Notes: a model not told the origin generated them from the sequence alone. Positions 19,889 through 32,399 are shown, counted from the stretch's first letter. The stretch is 64,000 bases of DNA from Pseudobdellovibrionaceae bacterium (GCA_947449255.1 CANFQX010000012.1:30668-94667), one strand, 5' to 3'. Made by a program: numbers and translations.

Positions 19889-21847
19889 ATGAATCAAAAT
19901 ACGGACCTAGGCAAAACACTTCCACGACGTCCTCTGAAAGGATTGCAGAGCGGATTGCAGCGAGGAAAGCTGCTGTTGCAACAGATAGAAAAACGTATTG
20001 AAAAACGGCTCAGTCCTTTCATTGTTGGGGCCTTCACACATAAAAAAAAGCTGCATATTTTTATGTCCAACTCAGATAAAAAATTGGCCTTGCTTGAGGG
20101 CAATGACAACGAAGAATACCAAGTTGCCCCAAGCACACTGCATTCCACGCTGCCATCCAAAGCCTGTCGCCTGATTCAATTGGATTCGATTGATAAAGGG
20201 CAATTTGCCGTGATGGTGTTGCAAAGAAAAGGTGTGGCGATTTCTTTGACAAAGGATCTAAAAAAATGGAGTCGACTTTTTTTTATAGGTAAAACTTCAG
20301 AGGGTCAAAATTTTAACAGTGGAGTTCTCATACCAGGGTTTCAAAAAGAGGGTTTGTATGTGATGCTGCTGGGCGGAAAAAAAGTGCAAATCGCCACTTC
20401 AAAAAATGCTCTGGACTGGGATTTGAATTATAAAGATGTCTTAGATATTCCCGTTTCCCAGAATGAGGAAGTCCATCTTGATTTCGCTAAGAAGTTGGCC
20501 AACGGAATTTTAATATCCTATCGGTTTATAAATCTTGAGGACGGAGAGATCAAACATCGTGTTCACATGGCTTTGCTTGACAGTCACGATATTTCACGAA
20601 TCCTGTGGCGCACTTCAAAGTCGGTATTTGAAAGCTCACCAGACTGGGGCTCTGCCCATTTTGCGGGGGCGGTGCTTTATCGGGGGCAAATTCACAGTTT
20701 TTGGAATACAGAGGGACTAGGAACTTTGAAAGTTTCTTATTCGATTGAAGATCTGCCTTTTCAATTGACTCCAGATCATGTTGTTGCAATTCAAAGGGCT
20801 CGCGAAAATCCTGTGATTTATCCTCGACCACAATTTTCCTGGGAGTCTTTTGCGACCTACAATCCAGCCGCTTTTTATGCACGGGGAAGGATTCACATTC
20901 TCTATCGGGCCCAAGGGTCTGATCTTATTTCAAGCATCGGCTATGCGAGCTCCAAGGATGGAGTCAACATTGATGAAAGGTCCGAGTCCCCAGTTTATCT
21001 GCCTCAAGAAGTTTTTGAATCCTTTCAAAAAGCATCGCCAGATCAAGTGGTGCAAAAATATGTTTCAGGAGGAGGCATTGCAGGTTGTGAGGATCCCAGA
21101 GTTACTTTAATTGGGGAGCGCTTGTACATGACCTACGTGGCCTTTGATGGTTGCAGCCCTCCACGTGCAGCGCTGACTTCGATTGCTCTGGAGGATCTCT
21201 TAGTCAAAAAATGGAATTGGCAAAAACCTGTTTTAATATCAGAGCCCGGGATTGTTAATAAAAGTGCAGTTATTTTTCCTGAAAAAATCAAAGGCAAGTT
21301 TGTGATGATGTATCGGATATTTCCCGATATTCAGATCGACTACCTGGATGATTTGAATTTTGATGGATCCAGGTGGCTGACAGAGAAGGCTCGCATTCCA
21401 GTTCGTGAAAATATGTGGGACAGTCGAAAGATTGGCGCAGGTGCACCTCCCCTTAAAACAGCCGAGGGTTGGTTGTTGATTTATTATGGAGTCGATGATC
21501 GCGACGATCGGTTTTACAAAATTGGAGCTATGCTTTTGGATCTTGAGGATCCTTCGAAGGTGCTTTATCGCTCTTCGACACCTATCTTGGAGCCTGAGGA
21601 TTGGTACGAAAATTCTGGATTTAAACCCGGGGTCGTCTATCCCTGTGGAGCTGTCTTGCACAATGAAAAAATATTTGTCTATTACGGTGGGGCTGATTGT
21701 GTTGTCTGTGTCGCGAGTCGAGACCTTCACAGTTTTATCGAAGCCCTGAAGTCAAATCATGACATCAAATTTTCAAAACAAAAAGTATTGAGGACTGAAG
21801 CCTATGAAACTCACACGAAATCAATTCAACCCTATTCTTTCGCCTGA
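19889..21847 (+). CDS. GH130-like (DUF377) glycosidase/phosphorylase with a divergent N-terminal region
   Basis: C-terminal half: ENPVIYP..WESFATYNPAA, GCEDPRV, NKSAVIFPEKI, KIGAGAPP, VVYPCGA, YYGGADC. Confidence 0.85.
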   Translation: MNQNTDLGKTLPRRPLKGLQSGLQRGKLLLQQIEKRIEKRLSPFIVGAFTHKKKLHIFMSNSDKKLALLEGNDNEEYQVAPSTLHSTLPSKACRLIQLDSIDKGQFAVMVLQRKGVAISLTKDLKKWSRLFFIGKTSEGQNFNSGVLIPGFQKEGLYVMLLGGKKVQIATSKNALDWDLNYKDVLDIPVSQNEEVHLDFAKKLANGILISYRFINLEDGEIKHRVHMALLDSHDISRILWRTSKSVFESSPDWGSAHFAGAVLYRGQIHSFWNTEGLGTLKVSYSIEDLPFQLTPDHVVAIQRARENPVIYPRPQFSWESFATYNPAAFYARGRIHILYRAQGSDLISSIGYASSKDGVNIDERSESPVYLPQEVFESFQKASPDQVVQKYVSGGGIAGCEDPRVTLIGERLYMTYVAFDGCSPPRAALTSIALEDLLVKKWNWQKPVLISEPGIVNKSAVIFPEKIKGKFVMMYRIFPDIQIDYLDDLNFDGSRWLTEKARIPVRENMWDSRKIGAGAPPLKTAEGWLLIYYGVDDRDDRFYKIGAMLLDLEDPSKVLYRSSTPILEPEDWYENSGFKPGVVYPCGAVLHNEKIFVYYGGADCVVCVASRDLHSFIEALKSNHDIKFSKQKVLRTEAYETHTKSIQPYSFA

Positions 21848-22769
21848 TTCCAACAATGAGTGGGAAAGTTTTGCTACCTTTAACGGCAATGTTTTTAAAA
21901 AAAAGGGAGCCGCTCACATGGTCTACAGAGCTATGTCAGAGTATCGTCGCGTTGGCGGAAAAGAGTTGAGAGTGTCCTCCATTGGGCACGCCGTTTCTCA
22001 AGATGGTGTCACCTTCCAGGATCGAAGTCTGCTGATCAGACCTGAACGCCCCTGGGATCGCTTCGGCTGCGAAGATCCAAGAGCTGTGCATATCGATGGA
22101 AAGACCATTGTCTTTTATACGGCCATCGGAGCCTATCCTTTTGTTTCGAGCCACATCCGTGTCGGTGTTGCTATTTTTGATAGCAAACCAGAATATCACC
22201 TCGTCACTCCTTTCAATGCCAAAGCCATGGCCATGTTTTCTGAAAAAATCAATGGCAAGTATGCGGTGATTCTGAGTGCAAACACGGACCTCCCGCCGGC
22301 GACAGTGGGTGTGGCGATGTTTGACCAGCTTGAAGAGTTATGGTCGAATGAATTTTGGACAAATTGGTATCAGCAACTTGCAGAGCATGCACTGCCTTTG
22401 CAAAGACTAGAAACAGATCAAATTGAAGTGGGCGCAGCTCCCGTGAAAGTGAAAGAGGGATGGCTTTTAATTTATTGCAGAATCCAAAACTATGGCAAAC
22501 CCAACATGATCTTTGGAATTGAAGCGGCCTTGTTAGATGGAACAAATCCAAAAAAAGTTTTAGCTCGCAGTCAAAATCCACTCTTGATTCCCAAAGAAGG
22601 CTATGAAGTTTATGGAACGGTCCCGAATGTTATTTTTCCCTCGGGGGCAATTATTGTGGGGGAAGAGCTGCGGGTTTATTACGGAGGTGCCGACACAGTG
22701 TGTGCTCTGGCCACTTGTCATTTGCCAACGCTTATGAAAAGTTTAATGAACATCTACGCAGCTTTTTAA
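21804..22769 (+). CDS. Single-domain GH130-like glycosidase; paralog of the N-terminal half of 27569-29500
   Basis: NPIL..WESFATFNG, GCEDPR, EVGAAP, NVIFPSGA, YYGGADT; overlaps the upstream gene by 44 bp. Confidence 0.85.
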   Translation: MKLTRNQFNPILSPDSNNEWESFATFNGNVFKKKGAAHMVYRAMSEYRRVGGKELRVSSIGHAVSQDGVTFQDRSLLIRPERPWDRFGCEDPRAVHIDGKTIVFYTAIGAYPFVSSHIRVGVAIFDSKPEYHLVTPFNAKAMAMFSEKINGKYAVILSANTDLPPATVGVAMFDQLEELWSNEFWTNWYQQLAEHALPLQRLETDQIEVGAAPVKVKEGWLLIYCRIQNYGKPNMIFGIEAALLDGTNPKKVLARSQNPLLIPKEGYEVYGTVPNVIFPSGAIIVGEELRVYYGGADTVCALATCHLPTLMKSLMNIYAAF

Positions 22770-23039
22770 ATATTTAATCGATAAGATTTCCCTGTCCTTA
22801 AAAAAACAAAAAAACTGCAAGCGGGCGATGGTGTCAAGAAATCAAGGATATGATTGACCGCATGAGAATTGCGCATAACAAATGCTATGAATACTTTGGG
22901 TAAGGTGTAGTCCAGAAGACCTAAAAACGGAATGCCTTAAAAAGTGAGATGAGCACACTACAATATGTCCCCGTGAAAGTTGATAAGTACCTTTATGGGT
23001 TAAGTCGCTGGAAAATAGTCAGTGCGAAAAGGAGAATTT

Positions 23040-23069
23040 ATTTGCGCATAATTTTGCATACAGGCAAAT
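23040..23069. repeat. 30-bp imperfect palindrome, copy A
   Basis: ATTTGCGCATAATTTTGCATACAGGCAAAT; 27/30 identical to the copy at 26702. Confidence 0.8.
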
Positions 23070-23221
23070 TAAAAGGGTGAACTTTGCAGTACGGTATTCA
23101 TGTCTTTTTAATACTGGATCAGTTTAGCCTGCATGCAAATCGCTTTTTATCAAAGATCATTGTTTCTTTCTTGGTCACGGTTCACCGTTTTTTACCGGGC
23201 AATGAAGAAATGAGCGCTATT

Positions 23222-23381
23222 AAAACAGGCCCCTTAAATTGTTGATGGCGGTTTTTTTTACAGCTGCCCTCGGTTTCAGATCGTCTGGCCATCCTGTGCA
23301 GCCTTCCTCAAGCGCATCGTGCGCTTGAGGGCAAAGTATGTACTCGGGCTAGTCTGATCAACAATTTTAGGGGCCAGTTTA
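23222..23381. mobile_element. MITE-like non-autonomous element, 160 bp
   Basis: TIRs AAAACAGGCCCCTTAAATTGTTGAT (23222-23246) and ATCAACAATTTTAGGGGCCAGTTTA (23357-23381) match at 22/25; flanked by a perfect 9-bp direct repeat AGCGCTATT (23213-23221, 23382-23390); no coding capacity. Confidence 0.8.
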
Positions 23382-23407
23382 AGCGCTATTAAATATTCAA
23401 AGCTTTT

Positions 23408-23457
23408 ACATAGACATACATAGAAGTGCATATCGATACATTGACAAACATAGACTT
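23408..23457. repeat. Five degenerate 10-bp tandem units
   Basis: ACATAGACAT/ACATAGAAGT/GCATATCGAT/ACATTGACAA/ACATAGACTT. Confidence 0.6.
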
Positions 23458-23564
23458 GATCGGAGAATCCGAACGTTAATGTTGCCTTTACAGACCTTTG
23501 CCAAAAAGATCCCTAATTAAAAAATATTTTTTCAAAGACTTTTTTTCTATTTTCATTTAAGACT

Positions 23565-23795
23565 CCTATTTCCTATTTCCTATTTCCTATTTCCTATTTC
23601 CTATTTCCTATTTCCTATTTCCTATTTCCTATTTCCTATTTCCTATTTCCTATTTCCTAATTCCTAATTCCTATTTCCTATTTCCTATTTCCTATTTCCT
23701 ATTTCCTATTTCCTATTTCCTATTTCCTATTTCCTATTTCCTATTTCCTAATTTCTAATTTCTAATTTCTATTTTCTATTTTCTATTTTCTATTT
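23565..23795. repeat. 7-bp tandem repeat (CCTATTT)n, 33 units
   Basis: Counted: 13x CCTATTT, 2x CCTAATT, 11x CCTATTT, 1x CCTAATT, 2x TCTAATT, 4x TCTATTT. Confidence 0.97.
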
Positions 23796-24112
23796 TTTTT
23801 GTGAGCCCAGATCAAATGTAGATCTCCGATCGGAGAAGCGTTGCAATATAAAATTGCTTTTTAAGAATTTTTAATTTGTGACTAAAAATGAAGAGTTTTT
23901 TTGGAAAAAGTCATTGACCTAAATAGGGGTTTAAATACGCCCGCTAGGGCTCAAATCTCAATTTTAAAGAGCATTTTCTTCAATTCAACCAAGGTTCCCA
24001 GGAATAAAAACAAGATCGCTAGGAGCCCCTCTGGGAGCGCTTCTTTTGTCTCTCAAATTCCGTGTTATAACACTTTCACAGGTTGGACCAAAGGCAATCA
24101 AAGAGGTGAAGG

Positions 24113-25348
24113 ATGAGGATGAATACGAACATTTTAAGTTTCCAAAAGTCAGAGGCTCTAGAATTAAATAACTTGAAAAAACTCAGCGATGCGGCACTGA
24201 TTGATGGATTTAAAAATCTGATTTTGCGTGAAAAACGATTGGGCGATCTGGTCTTGTTGAATTTGCAAGAAATGAATTCCAGAAGAATTTATGCGCAGCT
24301 TGGTTTCGGAAGTCTTTTTGAATTTTTAGTTAAATATTTTCATCTCAGTGAATCCTCGGCCTATCAGCGAATCAACGCAATGAAATTAATTCAATCCATT
24401 CCCGAAGCCAGAGCCGCACTTGTTTCAGGGGAAACCAACCTGTCAACCATGGCGGCCACTCAGGGATTTATACGCAAACTTGAATCTGAAAAAAAAGCAG
24501 TCTTAAGTTTTCAAGAGAAAAAAGACATTTTTGATGCCGTTAAAGGTAAAACCCAAAAAGAGGCGAAGGCAGCCTTTGTCACCATAAATCCTGTGGCAGC
24601 GCTTCCTGCCAATAAAGAAAAGCCACTAACTGCAAATCACACCTTGTTGCAAGTGACTGTCGATCAAGAAACTTTCCAGCTATTGCAAGAAGTTAAAAGT
24701 CTTTTGAGTCACGAAATCCCTGACGGGGACGTAAATAAAATATTGAAAAAAATATTTAAAGAGAGTCTAGAAATTTTAAAAAACAAAAAAGGCCGCAGCA
24801 AAGGATCGAAAATTCAGACAACGGAGCCTCAGCGCTTTGTGACAGAAAGTAAAGTTGAAGAAATAGTTCATCAGCGCCATCGCACAGAAATGAAAGTTGA
24901 GATTATAGACCATCAATGCATAGCTACTGATTGTAAACTTCAATCCACAGATTATAAACTTCAAACAACTGACATTCAATGTCCTGGGAACAATCATCCA
25001 TCTTCAACCAATGATTCTAATTTTAGAAAAACAAATCAAAAATATCGAGGGACTAATCTTAAAATAAAACACCGATTCTCGAAGCACTGCGAAGCCAAAA
25101 AATCTTCTCGATTTATTCCGATCGAGACAAGACGTCTTGTTTTTCAAAAAGCGCAAGGCCGCTGTGAATTTATTGGCTCAGATGGAAAGCGCTGTGAAAG
25201 TCATTATCAGTTGGAAATTGATCATCAGTTGGCTTGGAGTCAGGGCGGTTCGCATGATGAAACTAATTTGAGATGTCTTTGTAGAGTTCACAATACTTTC
25301 CGTACCAAAGAAACCCACGGTTTTTGGTGGAGTGATCTTTACCGCTGA
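24113..25348 (+). CDS. HNH endonuclease domain protein (long helical N-terminus, repeat linker, C-terminal HNH)
   Basis: RFIPIETRRLVFQKAQGRCEF...RCES...LEIDH...QGGSHDETNLRCLCRVHN: zinc-binding HNH; RBS GAGGTG upstream. Confidence 0.88.
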   Translation: MRMNTNILSFQKSEALELNNLKKLSDAALIDGFKNLILREKRLGDLVLLNLQEMNSRRIYAQLGFGSLFEFLVKYFHLSESSAYQRINAMKLIQSIPEARAALVSGETNLSTMAATQGFIRKLESEKKAVLSFQEKKDIFDAVKGKTQKEAKAAFVTINPVAALPANKEKPLTANHTLLQVTVDQETFQLLQEVKSLLSHEIPDGDVNKILKKIFKESLEILKNKKGRSKGSKIQTTEPQRFVTESKVEEIVHQRHRTEMKVEIIDHQCIATDCKLQSTDYKLQTTDIQCPGNNHPSSTNDSNFRKTNQKYRGTNLKIKHRFSKHCEAKKSSRFIPIETRRLVFQKAQGRCEFIGSDGKRCESHYQLEIDHQLAWSQGGSHDETNLRCLCRVHNTFRTKETHGFWWSDLYR

Positions 25349-25493
25349 TTGATTGAAAGTCGCGCTGGTGAATCCATCATCATTTCTTCAAACGGAGATG
25401 AAATCTTATCTTTGCAGAAAAAAGGAAGGTCGGCAGAAGCAAAAAAACCTATTCACTCTTGACGTTGTAAAAGCATTTTGATCACATAAAAAA

Positions 25494-26669
25494 ATGGTAG
25501 CAAAAATATTTCTCCTCACTTTAATTTTTTCTATTTCGGATAGAGTTTGTGCGCAATTAAATCCCCTTGGTGCCACGAACAACCAATTTGCTTTTGAAAT
25601 CTACAAGACCCAATCGAAAGTTGAGGGTAATTTATTTCTTTCGCCGTTGAGTATTTATTCAGCCTTAGCGATGACATCTGCGGGTGCCCAAAAAGAGACC
25701 CTAAATCAAATGATTAAGACCTTGCACCTGCCTCAGAGTTACCATTCAGATTTCGCACAACTGCTCGGTCATCTTAAGGGAAATCAGGATTATCAACTAG
25801 CCATTGCTAATCGAATTTGGACTAGCACAGGAAAGGCGTATCGACCTCAGTTTTTGAAAATGCTATTAGATCATTACCATGCTTCACCGGTGAGTTTGGA
25901 CTTTAAGCATAATACTGAAGAATCACGAAAGTTGATGAATTCTTGGATTGCCCAACAAACTCAGAATAAAATTATAGACCTGCTTCTGCCCGGAATTATT
26001 GATCGTAATACAGAGATGGTTTTAACAAATGCCATTTATTTTAAAGGCAAATGGGCACTTCCATTTAGCAAGGAAATGACGAGGGAGGGGGATTTTCAAC
26101 TGGCCTTATCTAAAACAAAAAAGGCTAAATTTATGCACATGAACAAGGAGTTGAGATATTTTGAAAATAATGAGCTACAACTTGTAGAGATGATTTATCA
26201 GGGTCATCAGCTTGCGATGGATGTTTTGTTGCTAAGGCCAGGCATTGATCTAAACTCAGTGGAGCAAAAAATCAGTGGATCCAGTTTCTCTGCTATGACC
26301 AACAAGCTTTCAACTGTTCCAGTGGCGTTGACGCTTCCAAAATTTAAAGCTGAATCACAATTTGAACTTTCCGAGAACCTAAAAGCACTTGGAATGACAC
26401 TTCCCTTTGATGAAGATAATGCAAATTTTAGTGGAGTAAGAGATTTCGTGAATGAGAAGATATTTATTTCAAAGGTCATACATAAAGCTTTTGTGGATAT
26501 TAGTGAAGAAGGTACCGAAGCTGCTGCGGCTACAGCCGTCATTATGACTAAAGCGGGGGCCGTAACTCCGCCAAAAATATTTAATGCCAATCATCCATTT
26601 TTATTTATGATTCGCGATCTAAAAACCGGGGCGATTTTATTTTTAGGTCGTTATTCCAATCCGGCCTAG
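25494..26669 (+). CDS. Secreted serpin (serine protease inhibitor)
   Basis: Signal peptide; NLFLSPLSIYSALAM, LTNAIYFKGKW, LPKFK, hinge EEGTEAAAATA, FNANHPFLFMI..FLGR. Confidence 0.96.
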   Translation: MVAKIFLLTLIFSISDRVCAQLNPLGATNNQFAFEIYKTQSKVEGNLFLSPLSIYSALAMTSAGAQKETLNQMIKTLHLPQSYHSDFAQLLGHLKGNQDYQLAIANRIWTSTGKAYRPQFLKMLLDHYHASPVSLDFKHNTEESRKLMNSWIAQQTQNKIIDLLLPGIIDRNTEMVLTNAIYFKGKWALPFSKEMTREGDFQLALSKTKKAKFMHMNKELRYFENNELQLVEMIYQGHQLAMDVLLLRPGIDLNSVEQKISGSSFSAMTNKLSTVPVALTLPKFKAESQFELSENLKALGMTLPFDEDNANFSGVRDFVNEKIFISKVIHKAFVDISEEGTEAAAATAVIMTKAGAVTPPKIFNANHPFLFMIRDLKTGAILFLGRYSNPA

Positions 26670-26701
26670 GTTTAAAATCACTTGTCATTTGCCCGCACGA
26701 G

Positions 26702-26731
26702 ATTTGCGCATGATTTTGCATACAGATAAAT
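26702..26731. repeat. 30-bp imperfect palindrome, copy B
   Basis: ATTTGCGCATGATTTTGCATACAGATAAAT; 3 nt beyond the stop codon of the minus-strand MNT gene. Confidence 0.8.
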
Positions 26732-26734
26732 GTA

Positions 26735-27055
26735 TTAAAACAGAACAATTCCCTTTGTGCGAATTTCATTGAGGATTGGTGATGCCGCATTTGGATTGAT
26801 GTAATCAGCAAGTGAAATGGGAATCCCCTCAAAATTGGGGTTAATGTGCGTCGCAATGAGATTTAAAGCGGCGCCTTCTGCAAAGCGACTTTTTCCATAG
26901 TCTCTGGAAACTACGGCAATATCAATATCGCTTTCGGGCCGAGCTCTATTGTCGGCATAGGATCCAAATAATATTAGCAAATCTGGATGAATATTGTTTT
27001 TCTTAAGTTCAGTTCTCAGTCTAAGGACATCTATTTTAATTGTGCCAATATCCAT
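26735..27055 (-). CDS. Minimal nucleotidyltransferase (MNT), putative antitoxin
   Basis: 106 aa; LILFGSYADNRARPESDIDIAVV = GS-x10-DxD. Confidence 0.9.
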   Translation of the reverse strand: MDIGTIKIDVLRLRTELKKNNIHPDLLILFGSYADNRARPESDIDIAVVSRDYGKSRFAEGAALNLIATHINPNFEGIPISLADYINPNAASPILNEIRTKGIVLF

Positions 27056-27441
27056 AGTTGTATCCGTTGGCCTTCCGCTAAAAATTTGGATGTGAATTCA
27101 TCAGTAGCAATCTTTTGAATCTCTTCGATTTCATTCGGATATCTGGTTGCTAAGTTAAATTCATTTATATCTGACAAAAGTTGCGAATCAGGTAGTTCAA
27201 TATTAACTCCCGCTTTTTGTGCCAACATCAACAGATTATGGGTCAATGGTGCAAATTGATTCATATTTTGAACAAAAAGTGCTTTAAGTCCTTTTTCTAT
27301 ACTCAAATGGAGAAAAAAAAGTGCATGTGCATTTTTCTTCGCAAGACAAGCAATGTCAATTGCAGCCTGGAGATCTCCTAAGCAACCCTGTCGCCAATAC
27401 TCTATGTTCTTTATTTTCTGCTCTTCAGTCATCAACTTCAT
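27031..27441 (-). CDS. HEPN domain protein, putative toxin partner of MNT
   Basis: EYWRQGCLGDLQAA, HLSIEKGLKAL, THNLLMLA, TRYP; overlaps MNT by 25 bp. Confidence 0.88.
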   Translation of the reverse strand: MKLMTEEQKIKNIEYWRQGCLGDLQAAIDIACLAKKNAHALFFLHLSIEKGLKALFVQNMNQFAPLTHNLLMLAQKAGVNIELPDSQLLSDINEFNLATRYPNEIEEIQKIATDEFTSKFLAEGQRIQLWILAQLK

Positions 27442-27536
27442 CCGATACGATAATTAGAGTTACTGTCCAAATTACAGTCCAAATTATAGATCAGCAATAA
27501 AGTCTTAGGCAATTGATAAACCTCTTAGCCCTCAAT

Positions 27537-27566
27537 TTTCGCGCAAGATTTTGCATGCAGGTAAAC
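27537..27566. repeat. 30-bp imperfect palindrome, copy C
   Basis: TTTCGCGCAAGATTTTGCATGCAGGTAAAC; 24/30 to copy B; 2 nt beyond the stop of the GH130 gene ending at 27569. Confidence 0.7.
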
Positions 27567-27568
27567 TC

Positions 27569-29500
27569 TTAACGAACATCTCCACAACTCTTTAAATATT
27601 TAATCAGCTTAGAGAGCGAGCCCGTGGCCAGACAGGTGCAACTGTCCGCTCCGCCATAAAAAATATGCAGGTTGTCTTTCCAAACTCCCCAGCCGCAAGG
27701 GAAGACCACATTGCGAACTTGACCGAAGCGTTCATAGGCCTCTTCAGGTTCTAAGATGGGATCCAGGGAGCGTCCTATAATTTGCGAGGGCTCATTCAGA
27801 TCCAGCAGCAAAGCACCCAAACGGTAGTGCCGGTCGTGAGTGCCGACACCGTGGTAAAGGAGCAACCAGCCCTCTGGTGTTTTTATTGGTGGGGTGTTTG
27901 CGCCAATTTTTATTCCCTCCCAGCTGTCTTTTCTTGGGGGGATGACGGTTTGTGATTCCAACCATTGTGAAGAGCCATCAAAATTAAGTTCAGGGCGATA
28001 ATCGATCACGATGTCGGGCTCGATCCGGTGAATGATAACAAAATTGCCGCGAATTTTTTCTGGAAAGAGGCAGGCATCTTTGTCAGCAATGCCCGGAGGC
28101 GAAATCAGAACAGGCTTTGTCCAGGATTCCCATTTTCTAGCTCTAAAGTCTTCGAGCCGGATTGAAGTCATGGCCACGCGGGGCGGGCTGTCTCCACGGT
28201 AGGCAGTGTAGAGCATATACACTTGATCATTGATTAAGGTCAGTCTTGGATCCTCGCACCCAGAGTGACCTTGGGCATAAGCCTTCTCTTCAAAATATTC
28301 CCGCGGTCGATAAATGGGCTCTGACTCTCTGCTGATAAATTCTGTTGTGTCTGCAGAAAAAGTGGCCAGTCCCATGTAGGAGGTTCCGGTGTTGTCTTGG
28401 CCTCGATAGACCACTTCAAGCTTGTCGCCATCTTGAAGCACTCCTGGATTGTAAACTCCAAGTCTTTCCCAAGGATGATCCCAACGAGAGGTCAAGACTG
28501 GATTGCGAAGGGATCTGTTCAGAATAGGAAGACTGACAGATTCGTAAACAAGGCTTTTCATGAGTGTCGGCAAATGGCAGGTGGCCAGGGCACACACCGT
28601 GTCTGCACCGCCGTAGTAAACATGAAGTTCTTCTCCTTCAATAATTGCCCCTGATGGAAAAACCACATTGGAGACGGTGCCATTGATTTCATAGCCTTCC
28701 TTAGGCACTAAGAGCGGATATTGGCTGCGAGCTAAAACTTTTTTTGGATTTTTTGCATCTAACAAGGCAGCTTCAATTCCAAAGACAGTCCCCGGGTGAC
28801 CATAGTTTTGAATTCGGCAGTAAATTAAAAGCCAACCCTCTTTCACTTTCACGGGAACTGCGCCCACTTCAATTTGATCCGTATCGAGTCTGCGTAAATG
28901 CAGAGCATGATGAGGAAGATCTAAATACCATTTATTCCAGAATTCCCGGGACCACAGGTCTTCTAGTTTTTCAAAGGTGGCAATGCCCACGGTTGAAGGC
29001 GGTAGATCTGTATTCACACTTAAAATCACTGTGTACTTGCCATTGATTTTTTCAGGAAACATCGCCATGGCTTTGGCATTGAAGGGAGTGACCAGGTGAT
29101 ACTCAGGCTTGCTGTCAAAATTATTAAAAATAGCAACGCCGACTCGGATATGATCAGAAACAAAAGGATAGGCTCCGATAGCTGTATAAAAAAGGAATTT
29201 TTTTTCCTCGAGGTTGGTGACTCTGGGGTCTTCACAACCAAAGCGATCCCAGGGACGTCCGGGATGAATCAAGAGGCCTTCTTTTTGAAAGCTCACTCCG
29301 TCCTTGGAGGTGGCGTGCCCTATGGAGGACATTCTTAATTCTTTGCTCTCAAGCTGACGATGGTCAGAAATGGCCCGATAGAAAAGATGATAGACTTCGC
29401 CTTCTTGGCAGACATTTCCGTTGAAGGCTGCAAAGCTTTCCCACTCATTTCTTAAGTCAGGAACAAGAATTGGATTTGATATATTTCTTGTGAGTTGCAT
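27569..29500 (-). CDS. Tandem two-domain GH130-like glycosidase/phosphorylase
   Basis: Two copies of NP(I/V)L..W, GCEDPR, P(S/C)G and (Y/F)YGGAD(T/S). Confidence 0.88.
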   Translation of the reverse strand: MQLTRNISNPILVPDLRNEWESFAAFNGNVCQEGEVYHLFYRAISDHRQLESKELRMSSIGHATSKDGVSFQKEGLLIHPGRPWDRFGCEDPRVTNLEEKKFLFYTAIGAYPFVSDHIRVGVAIFNNFDSKPEYHLVTPFNAKAMAMFPEKINGKYTVILSVNTDLPPSTVGIATFEKLEDLWSREFWNKWYLDLPHHALHLRRLDTDQIEVGAVPVKVKEGWLLIYCRIQNYGHPGTVFGIEAALLDAKNPKKVLARSQYPLLVPKEGYEINGTVSNVVFPSGAIIEGEELHVYYGGADTVCALATCHLPTLMKSLVYESVSLPILNRSLRNPVLTSRWDHPWERLGVYNPGVLQDGDKLEVVYRGQDNTGTSYMGLATFSADTTEFISRESEPIYRPREYFEEKAYAQGHSGCEDPRLTLINDQVYMLYTAYRGDSPPRVAMTSIRLEDFRARKWESWTKPVLISPPGIADKDACLFPEKIRGNFVIIHRIEPDIVIDYRPELNFDGSSQWLESQTVIPPRKDSWEGIKIGANTPPIKTPEGWLLLYHGVGTHDRHYRLGALLLDLNEPSQIIGRSLDPILEPEEAYERFGQVRNVVFPCGWGVWKDNLHIFYGGADSCTCLATGSLSKLIKYLKSCGDVR

Positions 29501-29942: not shown

Positions 29943-30293
29943 TCTTAACTCCTCGCAGGTCAGAAAAATTTGACAGGTCCTTCTTTGCGCTTTCGCAAAT
30001 GTTGGTGCTTTTGGATCCTTTGTCGAGCGAATTTTATTAATTTAAGGTGTTTGAATTTAAATGGAAGAAAAAACAGGACAAGTTGATCAATGACATTTTT
30101 TTTAAAATTATTTTCGATTTTTAAACGAATCTTTCCTTTAGTGATTAAATCGAATCGCAAAATGTGATTCTAACTTCAGGTTCTATAATAAAAGAAACGC
30201 GAGTTTTATTGCTCAAGGAATTTAGGTATTCTAATCCAGCCAAGCCCTGGCAAGCCCCTCTCATTAAAAGGGTTGAATCTCAGAGGAGTTTTC

Positions 30294-30707
30294 ATGAGTA
30301 CAAAATCTTTTTTTTGCAAGGTCCTTCTCATATTCTCAAGTCTCGTTGCCTTGATTTATTTGGATGGTTGCGGCTACGCACTTGATGCGATTCACCCGAC
30401 GACGCTGTCAAACGATGGCGGAAGTTCAAGTCAGTCGTCCACTGTACCTGCAAATCAAATTGATTATGCAGTGATTAGAACAGAGATTTTTGCTCCTCAC
30501 TGCTATGAATGCCACTCTTTGGCAGGTGGCAATGCTGGGGGAATTAATCTTGAAACCTATTTGAATATAAAAAGTAATCTGAGTGATATTCAAATTGATA
30601 TGGCCGACGATTCAATGCCAAAGGACAGGCCACCTCTGTCCAGTGCAGAAAAAAATTTACTAGCCTTGTGGATCTCTCAGGGAGCGCCCGAATTCGTGAT
30701 TCCTTAG
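30294..30707 (+). CDS. Exported/lipoprotein mono-heme c-type cytochrome (planctomycete cytochrome C-like)
   Basis: CYECH heme motif, GGINLETY, SMPKDRPPLS..EKNLLALWISQGAP; RBS GAGGAG before ATG 30294; hydrophobic N-terminus ending LDGC. Confidence 0.78.
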   Translation: MSTKSFFCKVLLIFSSLVALIYLDGCGYALDAIHPTTLSNDGGSSSQSSTVPANQIDYAVIRTEIFAPHCYECHSLAGGNAGGINLETYLNIKSNLSDIQIDMADDSMPKDRPPLSSAEKNLLALWISQGAPEFVIP

Positions 30708-30913
30708 GCAGCGCTTTAGGGCAAGGGCTTCAACCGAAGACTAGGCTTGGGACGAAATGTTCTGGCCTTCTCAACTGAGGATGCTTCATCCTAAGCCACT
30801 TTTAAAAAAATGTGTTTCAAAACTCACCTCCAAACGCGTCTCAATGCCAATAGAGGCAGCCTTCATGTTAAGCTCAAAGTCATGAATTTTTAAAATTCTT
30901 TGAAGGAGTCAAT

Positions 30914-32293
30914 ATGTTGAACGTGAGCTCTAAAAAAAATGAATCCACCTCAGGGATCTGGACGGTCATCGGTGCGTCGAGTGCGGGGACACTGATAGAG
31001 TGGTATGACTTTTATATCTTTGGTTCCTTGGCTACGATCATTGCCGCACAATTTTTTCCTAAAGGAAATGAAACCGTCGCGCTCTTAAGCACCCTGGCAA
31101 CTTTTGCGACTGGATTTATCGTGCGCCCCTTTGGCGCTTTGATTTTTGGCCGTATAGGAGACCTCGTCGGTCGCAAATATGCCTTTATGGTGACATTGCT
31201 GATTATGGGTGGGGCCACCACGGCGATTGGGCTCTTGCCCACTTATGAGCAGGTTGGGATTTTTGCGCCCATCGGACTGCTGGTCTTGCGCTTGTTGCAG
31301 GGCTTAGCTTTGGGCGGTGAATACGGAGGAGCGGCCACCTATGTGGCTGAGCACAGCCCCGATGGTAAAAGGGGATACTACACAAGCTTTATTCAGACCA
31401 CGGCAACCTTGGGTTTGTTTGTTTCATTGGGTGTTATTCTTGCCACTCGCTTAGGTACAGGAGAAGTGGCCTTTAAACAGTGGGGTTGGCGCATTCCATT
31501 TGTAGTCTCCGTGGCTTTGGTGGCCTTTAGTTATTATATCCGTCGTCGAATGAGTGAGTCCCCCGTCTTTCAAAAAATGAAAGCCTCGGGAAAGGCCTCA
31601 AAATCGCCTCTCAGGGATAGTTTTTTAAATCCAGAAAATCGCAAAATGGTTTTGATCGCCTTGTTTGGCGCGACGGCAGGACAGGGAGTTGTCTGGTATA
31701 CGGGGCAGTTTTATGCTCTCTATTATTTACAGACAGTCCTGAAAGTTGATTTTGTTATCGCGAATATGGTGATCGCTATTGCTCTGTTGCTTGCCACACC
31801 TTTCTTTGTGGTGTTTGGAGCCTTGTCAGATAAAATTGGACGAAAAAAAATCATGCTCTCTGGAATGGTTGTGGCCGCACTCACTTACTATCCCATCTAT
31901 CGTGCAATGGAGCATTACTCTGGGTGGAATCCTTTGGAGCCCAATGCGACAGCCCTGAATCCCAATATGTTTGCCTTAACAGCCTTAGTGTTTATTCAAG
32001 TTCTTTATGTGACTGCGGTCTACGGGCCTATCGCGGCTTTTTTGGTGGAATTGTTTCCGGCCAATATACGCTACACTTCAATGTCATTGCCCTATCATAT
32101 TGGCAATGGAGTCTTCGGTGGGCTGGTGCCCTTTATAGGGACGGCTATGGTGGCCTCGACCGGAAATCACTTCGCCGGATTGATTTATCCAATTTCGATC
32201 GCGGTGATCACGGTGTTCATTGGAGGCTTTTTAATTAAAGAGAAAAAAGATGTGAAATGGTTCGATGATAATAAAGGCTCTGATGCGGCTTAA
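30914..32293 (+). CDS. MFS transporter, metabolite:H+ symporter (MHS) family
   Basis: GTLIEWYDFYIF, RPFGALIFGRIGDLVGRK, LQGLALGGEYGGA, WGWRIPF, ELFPANIRYT. Confidence 0.95.
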   Translation: MLNVSSKKNESTSGIWTVIGASSAGTLIEWYDFYIFGSLATIIAAQFFPKGNETVALLSTLATFATGFIVRPFGALIFGRIGDLVGRKYAFMVTLLIMGGATTAIGLLPTYEQVGIFAPIGLLVLRLLQGLALGGEYGGAATYVAEHSPDGKRGYYTSFIQTTATLGLFVSLGVILATRLGTGEVAFKQWGWRIPFVVSVALVAFSYYIRRRMSESPVFQKMKASGKASKSPLRDSFLNPENRKMVLIALFGATAGQGVVWYTGQFYALYYLQTVLKVDFVIANMVIAIALLLATPFFVVFGALSDKIGRKKIMLSGMVVAALTYYPIYRAMEHYSGWNPLEPNATALNPNMFALTALVFIQVLYVTAVYGPIAAFLVELFPANIRYTSMSLPYHIGNGVFGGLVPFIGTAMVASTGNHFAGLIYPISIAVITVFIGGFLIKEKKDVKWFDDNKGSDAA

Positions 32294-32399
32294 CACAGGG
32301 CGCTTAAATTAAAAGATGGATAGGGGAGGAATTTATTTTTCGTCTATCCATTAAACATCAATATTTTAATGGAGCAAATTCAGTGCATTCAATTTTTCT

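Follow-up and report, generated by a model that had tools for sequence, protein, structure and literature searches.

Genomic islands inserted in the 3' ends of genes are bounded by direct repeats (att sites) and employ tyrosine integrases. The integrative mobile elements exploiting Xer (IMEX; e.g., CTX/TLC at the Vibrio dif) are tandem integrase-less elements with recombination sites in direct repeat, and they leave hybrid or defective sites. The minimal mobile elements of Neisseria represent alternative cargo between the same conserved genes, and the dRS3 repeats found there are abundant genome-wide. Xer sites consist of 11+6+11 bp with a conserved inner palindrome (CATAA/TTATG), a conserved XerD arm and a variable centre (PMC6449649; examples in PMC7399989). 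The so-called dif modules are bounded by inversely oriented sites, require identical centres for recombination, encode no integrase and typically carry toxin-antitoxin genes (PMC13141974); chromosomal dif-like sites away from the terminus are also known (PMC12907356). Here we report a 30-bp motif that occurs in three direct copies within a variable islet of a 64,000-nucleotide (nt) stretch from Pseudobdellovibrionaceae bacterium (GCA_947449255.1, CANFQX010000012.1:30668-94667), and compare it with these systems. Below, "the window" means this whole stretch, and positions are counted from its first letter.

The islet is a foreign insert of 4.8 kb (22780-27568) between two convergent GH130 (sugar-enzyme) genes. 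We tentatively interpret the motif as a core-type site (12-6-12) whose recombinase would be encoded in another part of the genome, the islet being a place where integrase-less modules accumulate; we would give this reading a probability of about 0.4. The copies, the partial copies and the adjoining flank sequences are as follows (L and X numbers tell apart related sequences and sequencing runs, respectively).

23040-23069, plus strand: motif copy A, ATTTGCGCATAATTTTGCATACAGGCAAAT
26702-26731, plus strand: motif copy B, ATTTGCGCATGATTTTGCATACAGATAAAT
27537-27566, plus strand: motif copy C, TTTCGCGCAAGATTTTGCATGCAGGTAAAC; last stretch (30 bp) of the insert, separated by 2 nt from the right 37-bp duplicate described below
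22830-22866, plus strand: 37-nt flank, also found 5' of copy B in L101/L102
22867-22878, plus strand: partial copy ("copy 0"), left arm AATTGCGCATAA only
23124-23139, minus strand: partial inverted copy (centre and right arm), 55 nt right of copy A
26686-26701, plus strand: 16-nt remnant of the 37-nt flank adjoining copy B, with the junction 26689|26690 and the microhomology CATT (4 nt)

The original prediction, made from the sequence alone, placed three direct copies at 23040, 26702 and 27537, and this observation is confirmed far beyond chance. A degenerate 30-mer matches A and B with no mismatch and has 0 matches in 100 shuffles; a 20-base core matches all three copies exactly; a weight matrix built from eight variants gives 45-49 bits for A, B and C, the maximum in the shuffled window being 10.9. 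The predicted identities (27/30 for A/B and, by direct count, 24/30 for B/C) were confirmed, and A/C is 23/30. The weight-matrix scan of the window revealed no other full copy, so that the claim of "no copy elsewhere" holds for full copies, although the two partial ones (22867-22878 and 23124-23139) had been overlooked. The similarity among the copies is a sharp 30-bp unit with unrelated flanks; it amounts to 30 + 37 nt for copy 0 and copy B of L101. Copy B lies between two convergent gene ends, 3 nt from the stop codon (26735) of the minus-strand MNT gene, and copy C lies 2 nt from the stop codon (27569) of the minus-strand 643-amino-acid (aa) GH130 gene. The interval from A to B contains a 7-bp microsatellite, an HNH-domain gene and a serpin gene, and that from B to C contains a HEPN-MNT toxin-antitoxin pair. 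Both the closeness to stop codons and the gene content had been described correctly.

Eight distinct motif variants were obtained from related contigs. Positions 12-20 are identical in 8/8, and the centre ATTTTGCAT is constant in all of them; the variable positions (1, 4, 10, 11, 21, 22, 25, 26 and 30) fall in the arms. The motif has dyad symmetry: 80.7% of the paired positions are complementary, versus 11-64% with the partners slid. Compared with the layout of tyrosine-recombinase sites (inverted arms of 11-13 bp and an overlap of 6-8 bp), the outer 6 bp of the arms form inverted repeats (ATTTGC...GCAAAT) and the inner 6 bp are asymmetric. As concerns a possible exchange point in the overlap region, copy 0 resembles the motif only up to position 12/13, where arm and centre meet, and the inverted fragment, with an exact match of 12/12 and 88% complementarity over 16 nt, begins in the motif centre; the strain junctions considered below lie elsewhere. 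The 37 nt directly after copy 0 are deleted in strains L104-L107, where copy A differs at 2 positions. In general, the copies carry 0-3 changes per 30 nt between strains differing by 3-6%, which is roughly the flank rate. The read depth of copy A is that of single-copy sequence (9-14).

It had also been proposed that each copy folds on the minus strand into the same bulged hairpin and that the variants preserve this fold. Neither statement was supported. Each copy with 5-nt flanks was folded on either strand, using DNA and RNA parameters, and compared with shuffles. The proposed hairpin is the minimum-energy fold for copy A only, and with RNA parameters only; the z-scores of all six strand/copy folds range from -1.4 to +0.4, and no fold better than shuffles was found in larger contexts (81-121 nt). 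Across the 8 variants, the complementarity of the proposed pairs (80.7%) equals the shuffle mean, no pair has changed in a compensatory manner on both sides, pair 5-26 is broken in 7/8 and pair 12-21 in 5/8. We believe that the symmetry is real, but it bears no sign of selection on base pairing; judging by its sequence, the motif behaves like a duplex binding site, and the instability of the hairpin fits a site recognised in double-stranded form.

These data largely refute the explanation put forward first, namely a single-strand hairpin element: a repetitive extragenic palindrome (REP) or bacterial interspersed mosaic element (BIME) with its REP-associated tyrosine transposase (RAYT), an end of the IS200/IS605 type, or an attC-like site. 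We consider it very improbable. The hairpin with its 2-nt bulge can indeed be drawn on paper, copies do stand just after stop codons, and one strain junction lies 12 nt beyond copy B, 12 nt being a typical distance for subterminal hairpins (as in IS608). However, the energies and the broken pairs speak to the contrary, and so do other observations. REP/BIME elements number tens to hundreds per genome; here there are three full copies in 64 kb, all in one islet, and copy A has single-copy depth, while a different element nearby (23215-23390, see below) has about 60x as much. The suggestion of a lineage-specific REP was not substantiated either. The attC core heptamers RYYYAAC/GTTRRRY are absent in and beside every copy, as had been noted, and an attC-type fold is no better than shuffles in 40-nt and 81-121-nt contexts, with no covariation. 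Linkage to an integron is lacking in the window, which contains no integrase and only three full copies; a gene for a Y1 transposase, a tyrosine recombinase or IntI was not found there. Elements of the IS200/IS605 type have subterminal hairpins and make no target duplication; here the hairpins are unsupported, and the 37-bp duplication is not a product of such transposases. No copy coincides with an intrinsic terminator-like site (a stem rich in G+C and a T run after it).

The borders of the insert are defined by the following features.

21804-22769, plus strand: truncated GH130 gene (321 aa; Pfam Glyco_hydro_130), the left conserved flank
22743-22779: left 37-bp duplicate, i.e., the last 37 nt (antisense) of the 643-aa GH130 gene; left insert border
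27569-27605: right 37-bp duplicate, the true 3' end of the 643-aa GH130 gene
27569-29500, minus strand: full-length two-domain GH130 gene (643 aa), the right conserved flank

L118, with a 643-aa GH130 protein 81% identical, lacks everything that would correspond to window positions 22742-27569; its truncated and full-length GH130 genes converge with an overlap of 4 nt. The two 37-bp duplicates are in direct orientation and 86% identical; L118 has one copy only. A direct sequence comparison revealed derived states common to both copies relative to L118, and therefore the duplication arose in the lineage of the window. The final 9 codons of the truncated gene extend into the left duplicate; the homology with L118 stops at 22741. 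The GC content of the islet is 37.7% versus about 42.5% outside. Restoration of a gene 3' end by a foreign segment, together with a diverged duplicate at the far border, is a known outcome of the insertion of integrative elements.

The GH130 genes themselves (19889-22769 and 27569-29500; L118, L079 and L080 were compared) form an old inverted paralog pair with arms 75-80% identical; the more distant relatives L079 and L080 have two full GH130 genes in tandem instead. We considered that the motif might be a conserved 3' element of the GH130 gene and rejected this, as L079, L080 and L118 do not have it downstream of the gene. An extension of the motif similarity into the last MNT and GH130 codons was likewise rejected, as these codons are native to both gene families.

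Comparison of strains reveals at least three islet alleles at 94-99% identity. L095-L100 and L103 have the arrangement of the window. In L081 (GH130 99% identical) and in a contig of run X5, the serpin gene and the sequence ending in cacttgtcatt are followed by 93 unrelated nt and then by copy C; copy B, the 12 nt preceding it and the HEPN-MNT pair are all missing. The junctions correspond to 26689|26690 and 27538|27539 of the window, the latter being position 2/3 of copy C. Copy C is kept in L081 although the HEPN-MNT operon is absent. The 93-nt segment of L081 contains a hairpin with a 12-bp stem, which has the terminator role there. L101 and L102 (97.5% identical over 26686-28294) retain B, the toxin-antitoxin pair and C, and another gene replaces the serpin gene; the full 37-nt flank ggtgtcaagaaatcaaggagacatttgcccgcacgag stands directly 5' of B, and the same is true of run X15. 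The toxin-antitoxin pair occurs without the serpin gene in runs X12, X14, X15 and X16. The gene that replaces the serpin gene in L101 gave a single distant match among the homologs sought, on a 1-kb contig without the motif. Copies B and C of L101/L102 are now identical over positions 4-21; this points to exchange or gene conversion, although such likeness does not prove the mechanism.

These alleles bear directly on the claim that the copies bracket gene modules in the manner of cassette boundaries, for which relatives with a missing module were to be inspected. Such relatives exist: HEPN-MNT with copy B is absent in L081/X5, and the whole insert is absent in L118. The claim therefore stands insofar as modules are gained or lost beside the copies (L118, L081/X5, L101/L102) and one copy occurs in an unrelated context (see below); it does not stand insofar as no allele of a conservative crossover was observed. 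Absence of any gain or loss of modules at these positions had been named as decisive against it, and we find that modules do come and go there, although the mechanism is only a proposed one.

The main rival of our interpretation is that the copies are passive relics. The islet would turn over by homologous recombination in the flanks and by microhomology joins, and the copies would be pieces of one ancestral intergenic sequence duplicated together with the cargo, with no dedicated enzyme. We regard this as possible, if rather less so than the core-type site. The allele of the window can be described as an L081-type left part and an L101-type right part joined at the 4-nt microhomology CATT, which we take from the sequence to be an illegitimate join. 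The junction 26689|26690 recurs with three different partners; a contig of run X8 joins 26689 to 26834, and a low-depth contig of run X7 joins 27106 to 27543, within the left arm of C. The evolution of the copies at about the flank rate and the lack of a recombinase in the window agree with passive turnover as well. On the other hand, four observations speak against it: the sharpness of the unit, beyond which nothing is common except for the 37 nt next to copy 0 and L101 copy B, the dyad symmetry, the breakage of fragments at the arm/centre boundary, and the near-identical copy in an unrelated context.

The latter copy is found in a 225-nt contig of run X8, which matches window positions 26703-26734 at 30/32 and has both flanks unrelated (GTTGCACCATGAAGTTAATTATATTGGTTT and GATGAGGCCTTCAAAGGCAAAATCCCTGCA); its depth is 5.2 versus 4.1 for the copy-B contig of the same run. 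Thus, the motif is present in at least one context besides the islet, and this contig is the only evidence outside the locus. In the census with copy B as bait, in which contigs were aligned with a stretch of 50-56 nt, copies A and C were not recovered; the procedure sees only near-exact matches of at least about 31 nt, and its counts are a lower bound.

Collections were scanned with cores of 17-20 bases. A 17-base core gave 78 matches in 596 Gb of reference genomes (a collection that excludes the source genome), one per contig and in unrelated taxa, which is about the chance expectation. Scans of the JGI metagenomes and viral contigs gave unrelated matches only; as the metagenome scan missed the known L081 contig, this is weak evidence. 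Nothing similar to the islet or to the motif was found in plasmid and phage collections apart from chance matches, and no known RNA family (Rfam) was detected in the window, either at gathering thresholds or at E-values up to 1. The best genome match (28/30) belongs to a Bacteroides metagenome-assembled genome (L024, 6335-6370), about 50 nt 5' of a glycoside-hydrolase-like gene; we rejected it as probably a coincidence in an AT-rich promoter. This match contains TAATTTTG; its locus, like the present one, nevertheless has to do with carbohydrate-active enzymes. Unrelated metagenome and viral contigs (L082, L084, L085, L086, L088, L090, L091 and L093) share a conserved non-coding element of about 150 nt, which is rich in GCATGCA words, happens to contain GGCGCATGATTTTGCATGCAGA and is unrelated to the flanks in the window.

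The motif also has an internal periodicity of 10 bp, with head-to-tail half-sites ATTTGCGCAT / AATTTTGCAT. Together with the partial dyad symmetry, this could suggest an operator or a binding site for a regulator or nucleoid protein, with such half-sites spaced by 10 bp, that controls or insulates the islet genes. Copy C stands about 25 nt upstream of the -35 box in the promoter-like site that scores best for the HEPN-MNT operon (27512 to 27483, minus strand). However, copy B is located where the ends of two genes converge, L081 retains copy C without the operon, no promoter-like (sigma-70) site overlaps any copy, and homologous toxin-antitoxin operons lack the motif; the partial copies and the copy in the other context would also be left unexplained. 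We find the operator unlikely.

Another explanation is a Xer (dif-like) site, the modules being similar to IMEX or dif modules and moved by the host XerC/XerD. In copy A, the left arm TTTGCGCATAA agrees with the XerC arm of E. coli (GGTGCGCATAA) at 9/11 positions. The centres are identical in all copies (positions 12-20 in the 8 variants), as recombination of dif modules needs, and integrase-less modules with a toxin-antitoxin pair are typical of that system (PMC13141974); dif-like sites are known at chromosomal positions away from the terminus (PMC12907356). Against this, only copy A is XerC-like in its left arm, B and C having GCATGA and GCAAGA; the right arm reads ATRCAG..AAAY and contains no TTATG; and the pattern of variable inner parts, symmetric outer parts and fixed centre is at odds with the Xer sites of PMC6449649. 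Copies A, B and C are all direct repeats, in contrast to the inverse sites of dif modules. GC skew is positive on both sides of the islet, and the skew at third codon positions is +0.10 to +0.16 on both of them, whatever the gene strand; since its sign is unchanged across the islet, the locus is not the replication terminus. Nor was the core found once per genome in any reference genome of related taxa. The narrower variant, a chromosomal dif with tandem IMEX, was rejected because there is no skew switch, no XerD-type arm and no once-per-genome match. A Xer site thus appears quite improbable, more so than an operator.

We favour a core-type site for the following reasons. The direct copies are sharp, with unrelated flanks, and exceed chance; the dyad symmetry is real, with a constant centre and varying arms. 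The fragments correspond to parts of such a site (the left arm only in copy 0, the centre and right arm in the inverted piece). The insert is absent in L118, and a gene 3' end is duplicated over 37 bp, as in integrative elements. The HEPN-MNT pair with copy B is absent in L081/X5, and the serpin gene is replaced in L101/L102, where B and C are alike over positions 4-21. A copy stands in an unrelated context in X8, and the islet has low GC. Variable DNA adjoining the copies and fragments ending at the arm/centre boundary are what is expected of a recombination site.

Under this interpretation, the 30-bp element would be a double-stranded protein-recognition site with two 12-bp arms and a constant centre. 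The islet has no recombinase, and the enzyme would be supplied from elsewhere in the genome. Modules (the serpin gene or another gene; HEPN-MNT) would be added serially at such sites; full copies would remain between them, and the half-sites would be scars of this process. Exchange between strains, both illegitimate and homologous, would later have blurred the original junctions. Recombination between B and C would be predicted to yield the hybrid junctions ATTTGCGCATGATTTTGCATGCAGGTAAAC in the chromosome and TTTCGCGCAAGATTTTGCATACAGATAAAT in the circle. The copies with their fragments, the insertion with its duplication, the differences among strains beside the copies and the copy in another context are observed; both the binding and cutting of the motif by a recombinase and the arrival of the modules by that route are what we infer from the arrangement.

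A number of observations weigh against this. None of the strain junctions falls in the centre of the motif; they are found either at its left edge, position 2/3, or 12-16 nt away from it. The alleles observed include no clean product of a conservative crossover between two copies; in L081, the place of B and the toxin-antitoxin pair is taken by the 93 unrelated nt, with the left junction at a distance of 12 nt from B. The motif is missing beside homologous HEPN-MNT pairs of three other contexts; for the same reason, we rejected the notion that the motif is intrinsic to the HEPN-MNT module (homologs with 66-76% identity in these contexts have no copy within 7/27 mismatches). Should the attachment core be the 37-bp duplication, crossover would not take place at the 30-bp motif, which would then be an accessory site. 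No recombinase, integrase or transposase was found among the open reading frames (ORFs) of at least 120 aa in the window. No array of the motif was found in the 596 Gb of reference genomes, the JGI metagenomes or the viral contigs, where matches are at chance level. Finally, given few independent copies, the invariant centre is statistically inseparable from recent common descent.

The surroundings of the islet are ordinary. The window is part of a 116-kb NCBI contig, and metagenomes of freshwater, lakes, rivers and sediment contain near-identical DNA; the surrounding genes are usual chromosomal ones (TrpRS, ScpA/B, ribonucleotide reductase, HtpG, P-type ATPases and others), and there is no tRNA gene in the window. 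The cargo genes are listed below.

24113-25348, plus strand: HNH-domain protein gene; Pfam recognises the C-terminal HNH domain only
25494-26669, plus strand: serpin gene, cargo of the left module; another gene is present instead in L101/L102
26735-27441, minus strand: toxin-antitoxin pair of HEPN (27031-27441) and MNT (26735-27055); absent in L081 and X5

The HNH gene with its upstream region (23860-25300) has a depth of 80-340 in metagenomes, 10-20x that of single-copy sequence, and many contig fragments 85-95% identical to it exist, with internal length variants. We presume that this gene is probably a multi-copy selfish element in its own right that resides in the insert. A 7-bp unit (CCTATTT, decaying to CTAATTT and CTATTTT) is repeated in tandem about 30 times at 23555-23800, 5' of the HNH gene. 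Near the C-terminus of the serpin (26563-26570), strain-specific 9-nt insertions AACTCCGCC, CTCAGCCAC, CTCCGCCAC and CCAACTCCT are found; these are a 3-aa length polymorphism in the region expected for the reactive-centre loop. A 12-nt unit (GTCCAAATTACA / GTCCAAATTATA) 5' of the HEPN start (27455-27480) is present in one to three copies, depending on the strain.

Two further features deserve mention. A 170-nt element (23215-23390) is bounded by long inverted repeats (23223-23246 / 23357-23380) and encloses a perfect hairpin, CTCAAGCGCAtcgTGCGCTTGAG. Its fold has z = -6.6, and it is present once in the window; its depth in 3/4 metagenomes is 240-950 versus 5-14 for the flanks, and contigs break there; compared with copy A (9-14), it reaches 560-950, about 60x as much. 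It is probably an abundant element of this lineage similar to REPs or to miniature inverted-repeat transposable elements (MITEs). A second variable spot is located 2.4 kb away (window 29954-32394 versus L095 6327-7090), where the window contains a 144-aa ORF and a transporter gene of the major facilitator superfamily, and L095-L097 have a 764-nt segment with an ORF of 152-179 aa.

If the motif works as a recombination site, the shuffling of integrase-less modules at short sites in chromosomes would extend beyond integrons and the Xer modules of Acinetobacter, and the 30-mer can serve as bait for the enzyme and for more cargo in freshwater metagenomes. If it is a relic only, the locus nevertheless illustrates clearly what a small variable islet between conserved genes looks like. 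A bolder proposal, which we consider doubtful, is an undescribed cassette system of an uncultured freshwater lineage in which crossover takes place at the motif. Small integrase-less modules (a toxin-antitoxin pair, a serpin, a lipoprotein-like gene) would be captured serially downstream of stop codons, at a 12-6-12 site unlike attC or dif in sequence, and the recombinase would be encoded elsewhere in the genome.

Let us compare the locus with the known systems. Like 3'-end genomic islands, it has a restored target 3' end, a diverged duplicate at the far border (37 bp, 86%) and low GC, and it is absent from a relative; it differs in having no integrase gene, in its size of only 4.8 kb, and in that the 30-bp motif is distinct from the duplicated 37 bp. 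With the minimal mobile elements of Neisseria and dRS3 it shares strain-alternative cargo between two conserved genes and short repeats at rearrangement junctions, whereas dRS3 is abundant genome-wide and our motif is rare. IMEX arrays are also composed of integrase-less elements separated by direct site repeats, with defective sites; however, they reside at the chromosomal dif/terminus, and here there is no skew switch and the site is not dif-like.

Integron cassettes resemble the modules in cargo that includes toxin-antitoxin pairs, in a site within a few nt of a stop codon and in strain-variable arrays. In contrast to attC, the motif has no RYYYAAC/GTTRRRY cores, is 30 bp long rather than 55-141 bp and has no supported bottom-strand fold; in contrast to integrons, neither IntI nor attI was found in the window, and the cargo is on both strands. 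The dif/pdif modules are similar in being small and recombinase-less, in often carrying toxin-antitoxin genes, and in their short sites of about 28-30 bp, which require identical centres and a host enzyme (PMC13141974, PMC6449649). They differ in the 11-6-11 organisation of pdif with inner CATAA/TTATG, a variable spacer and inverse alternation, as opposed to direct 12-6-12 sites with a fixed centre and symmetric outer arms here, where there is also no XerD-type arm and no crossover product was seen. If the cassette system outlined above is real, it would be a third kind of module shuffling beside integrons and Xer/dif modules.

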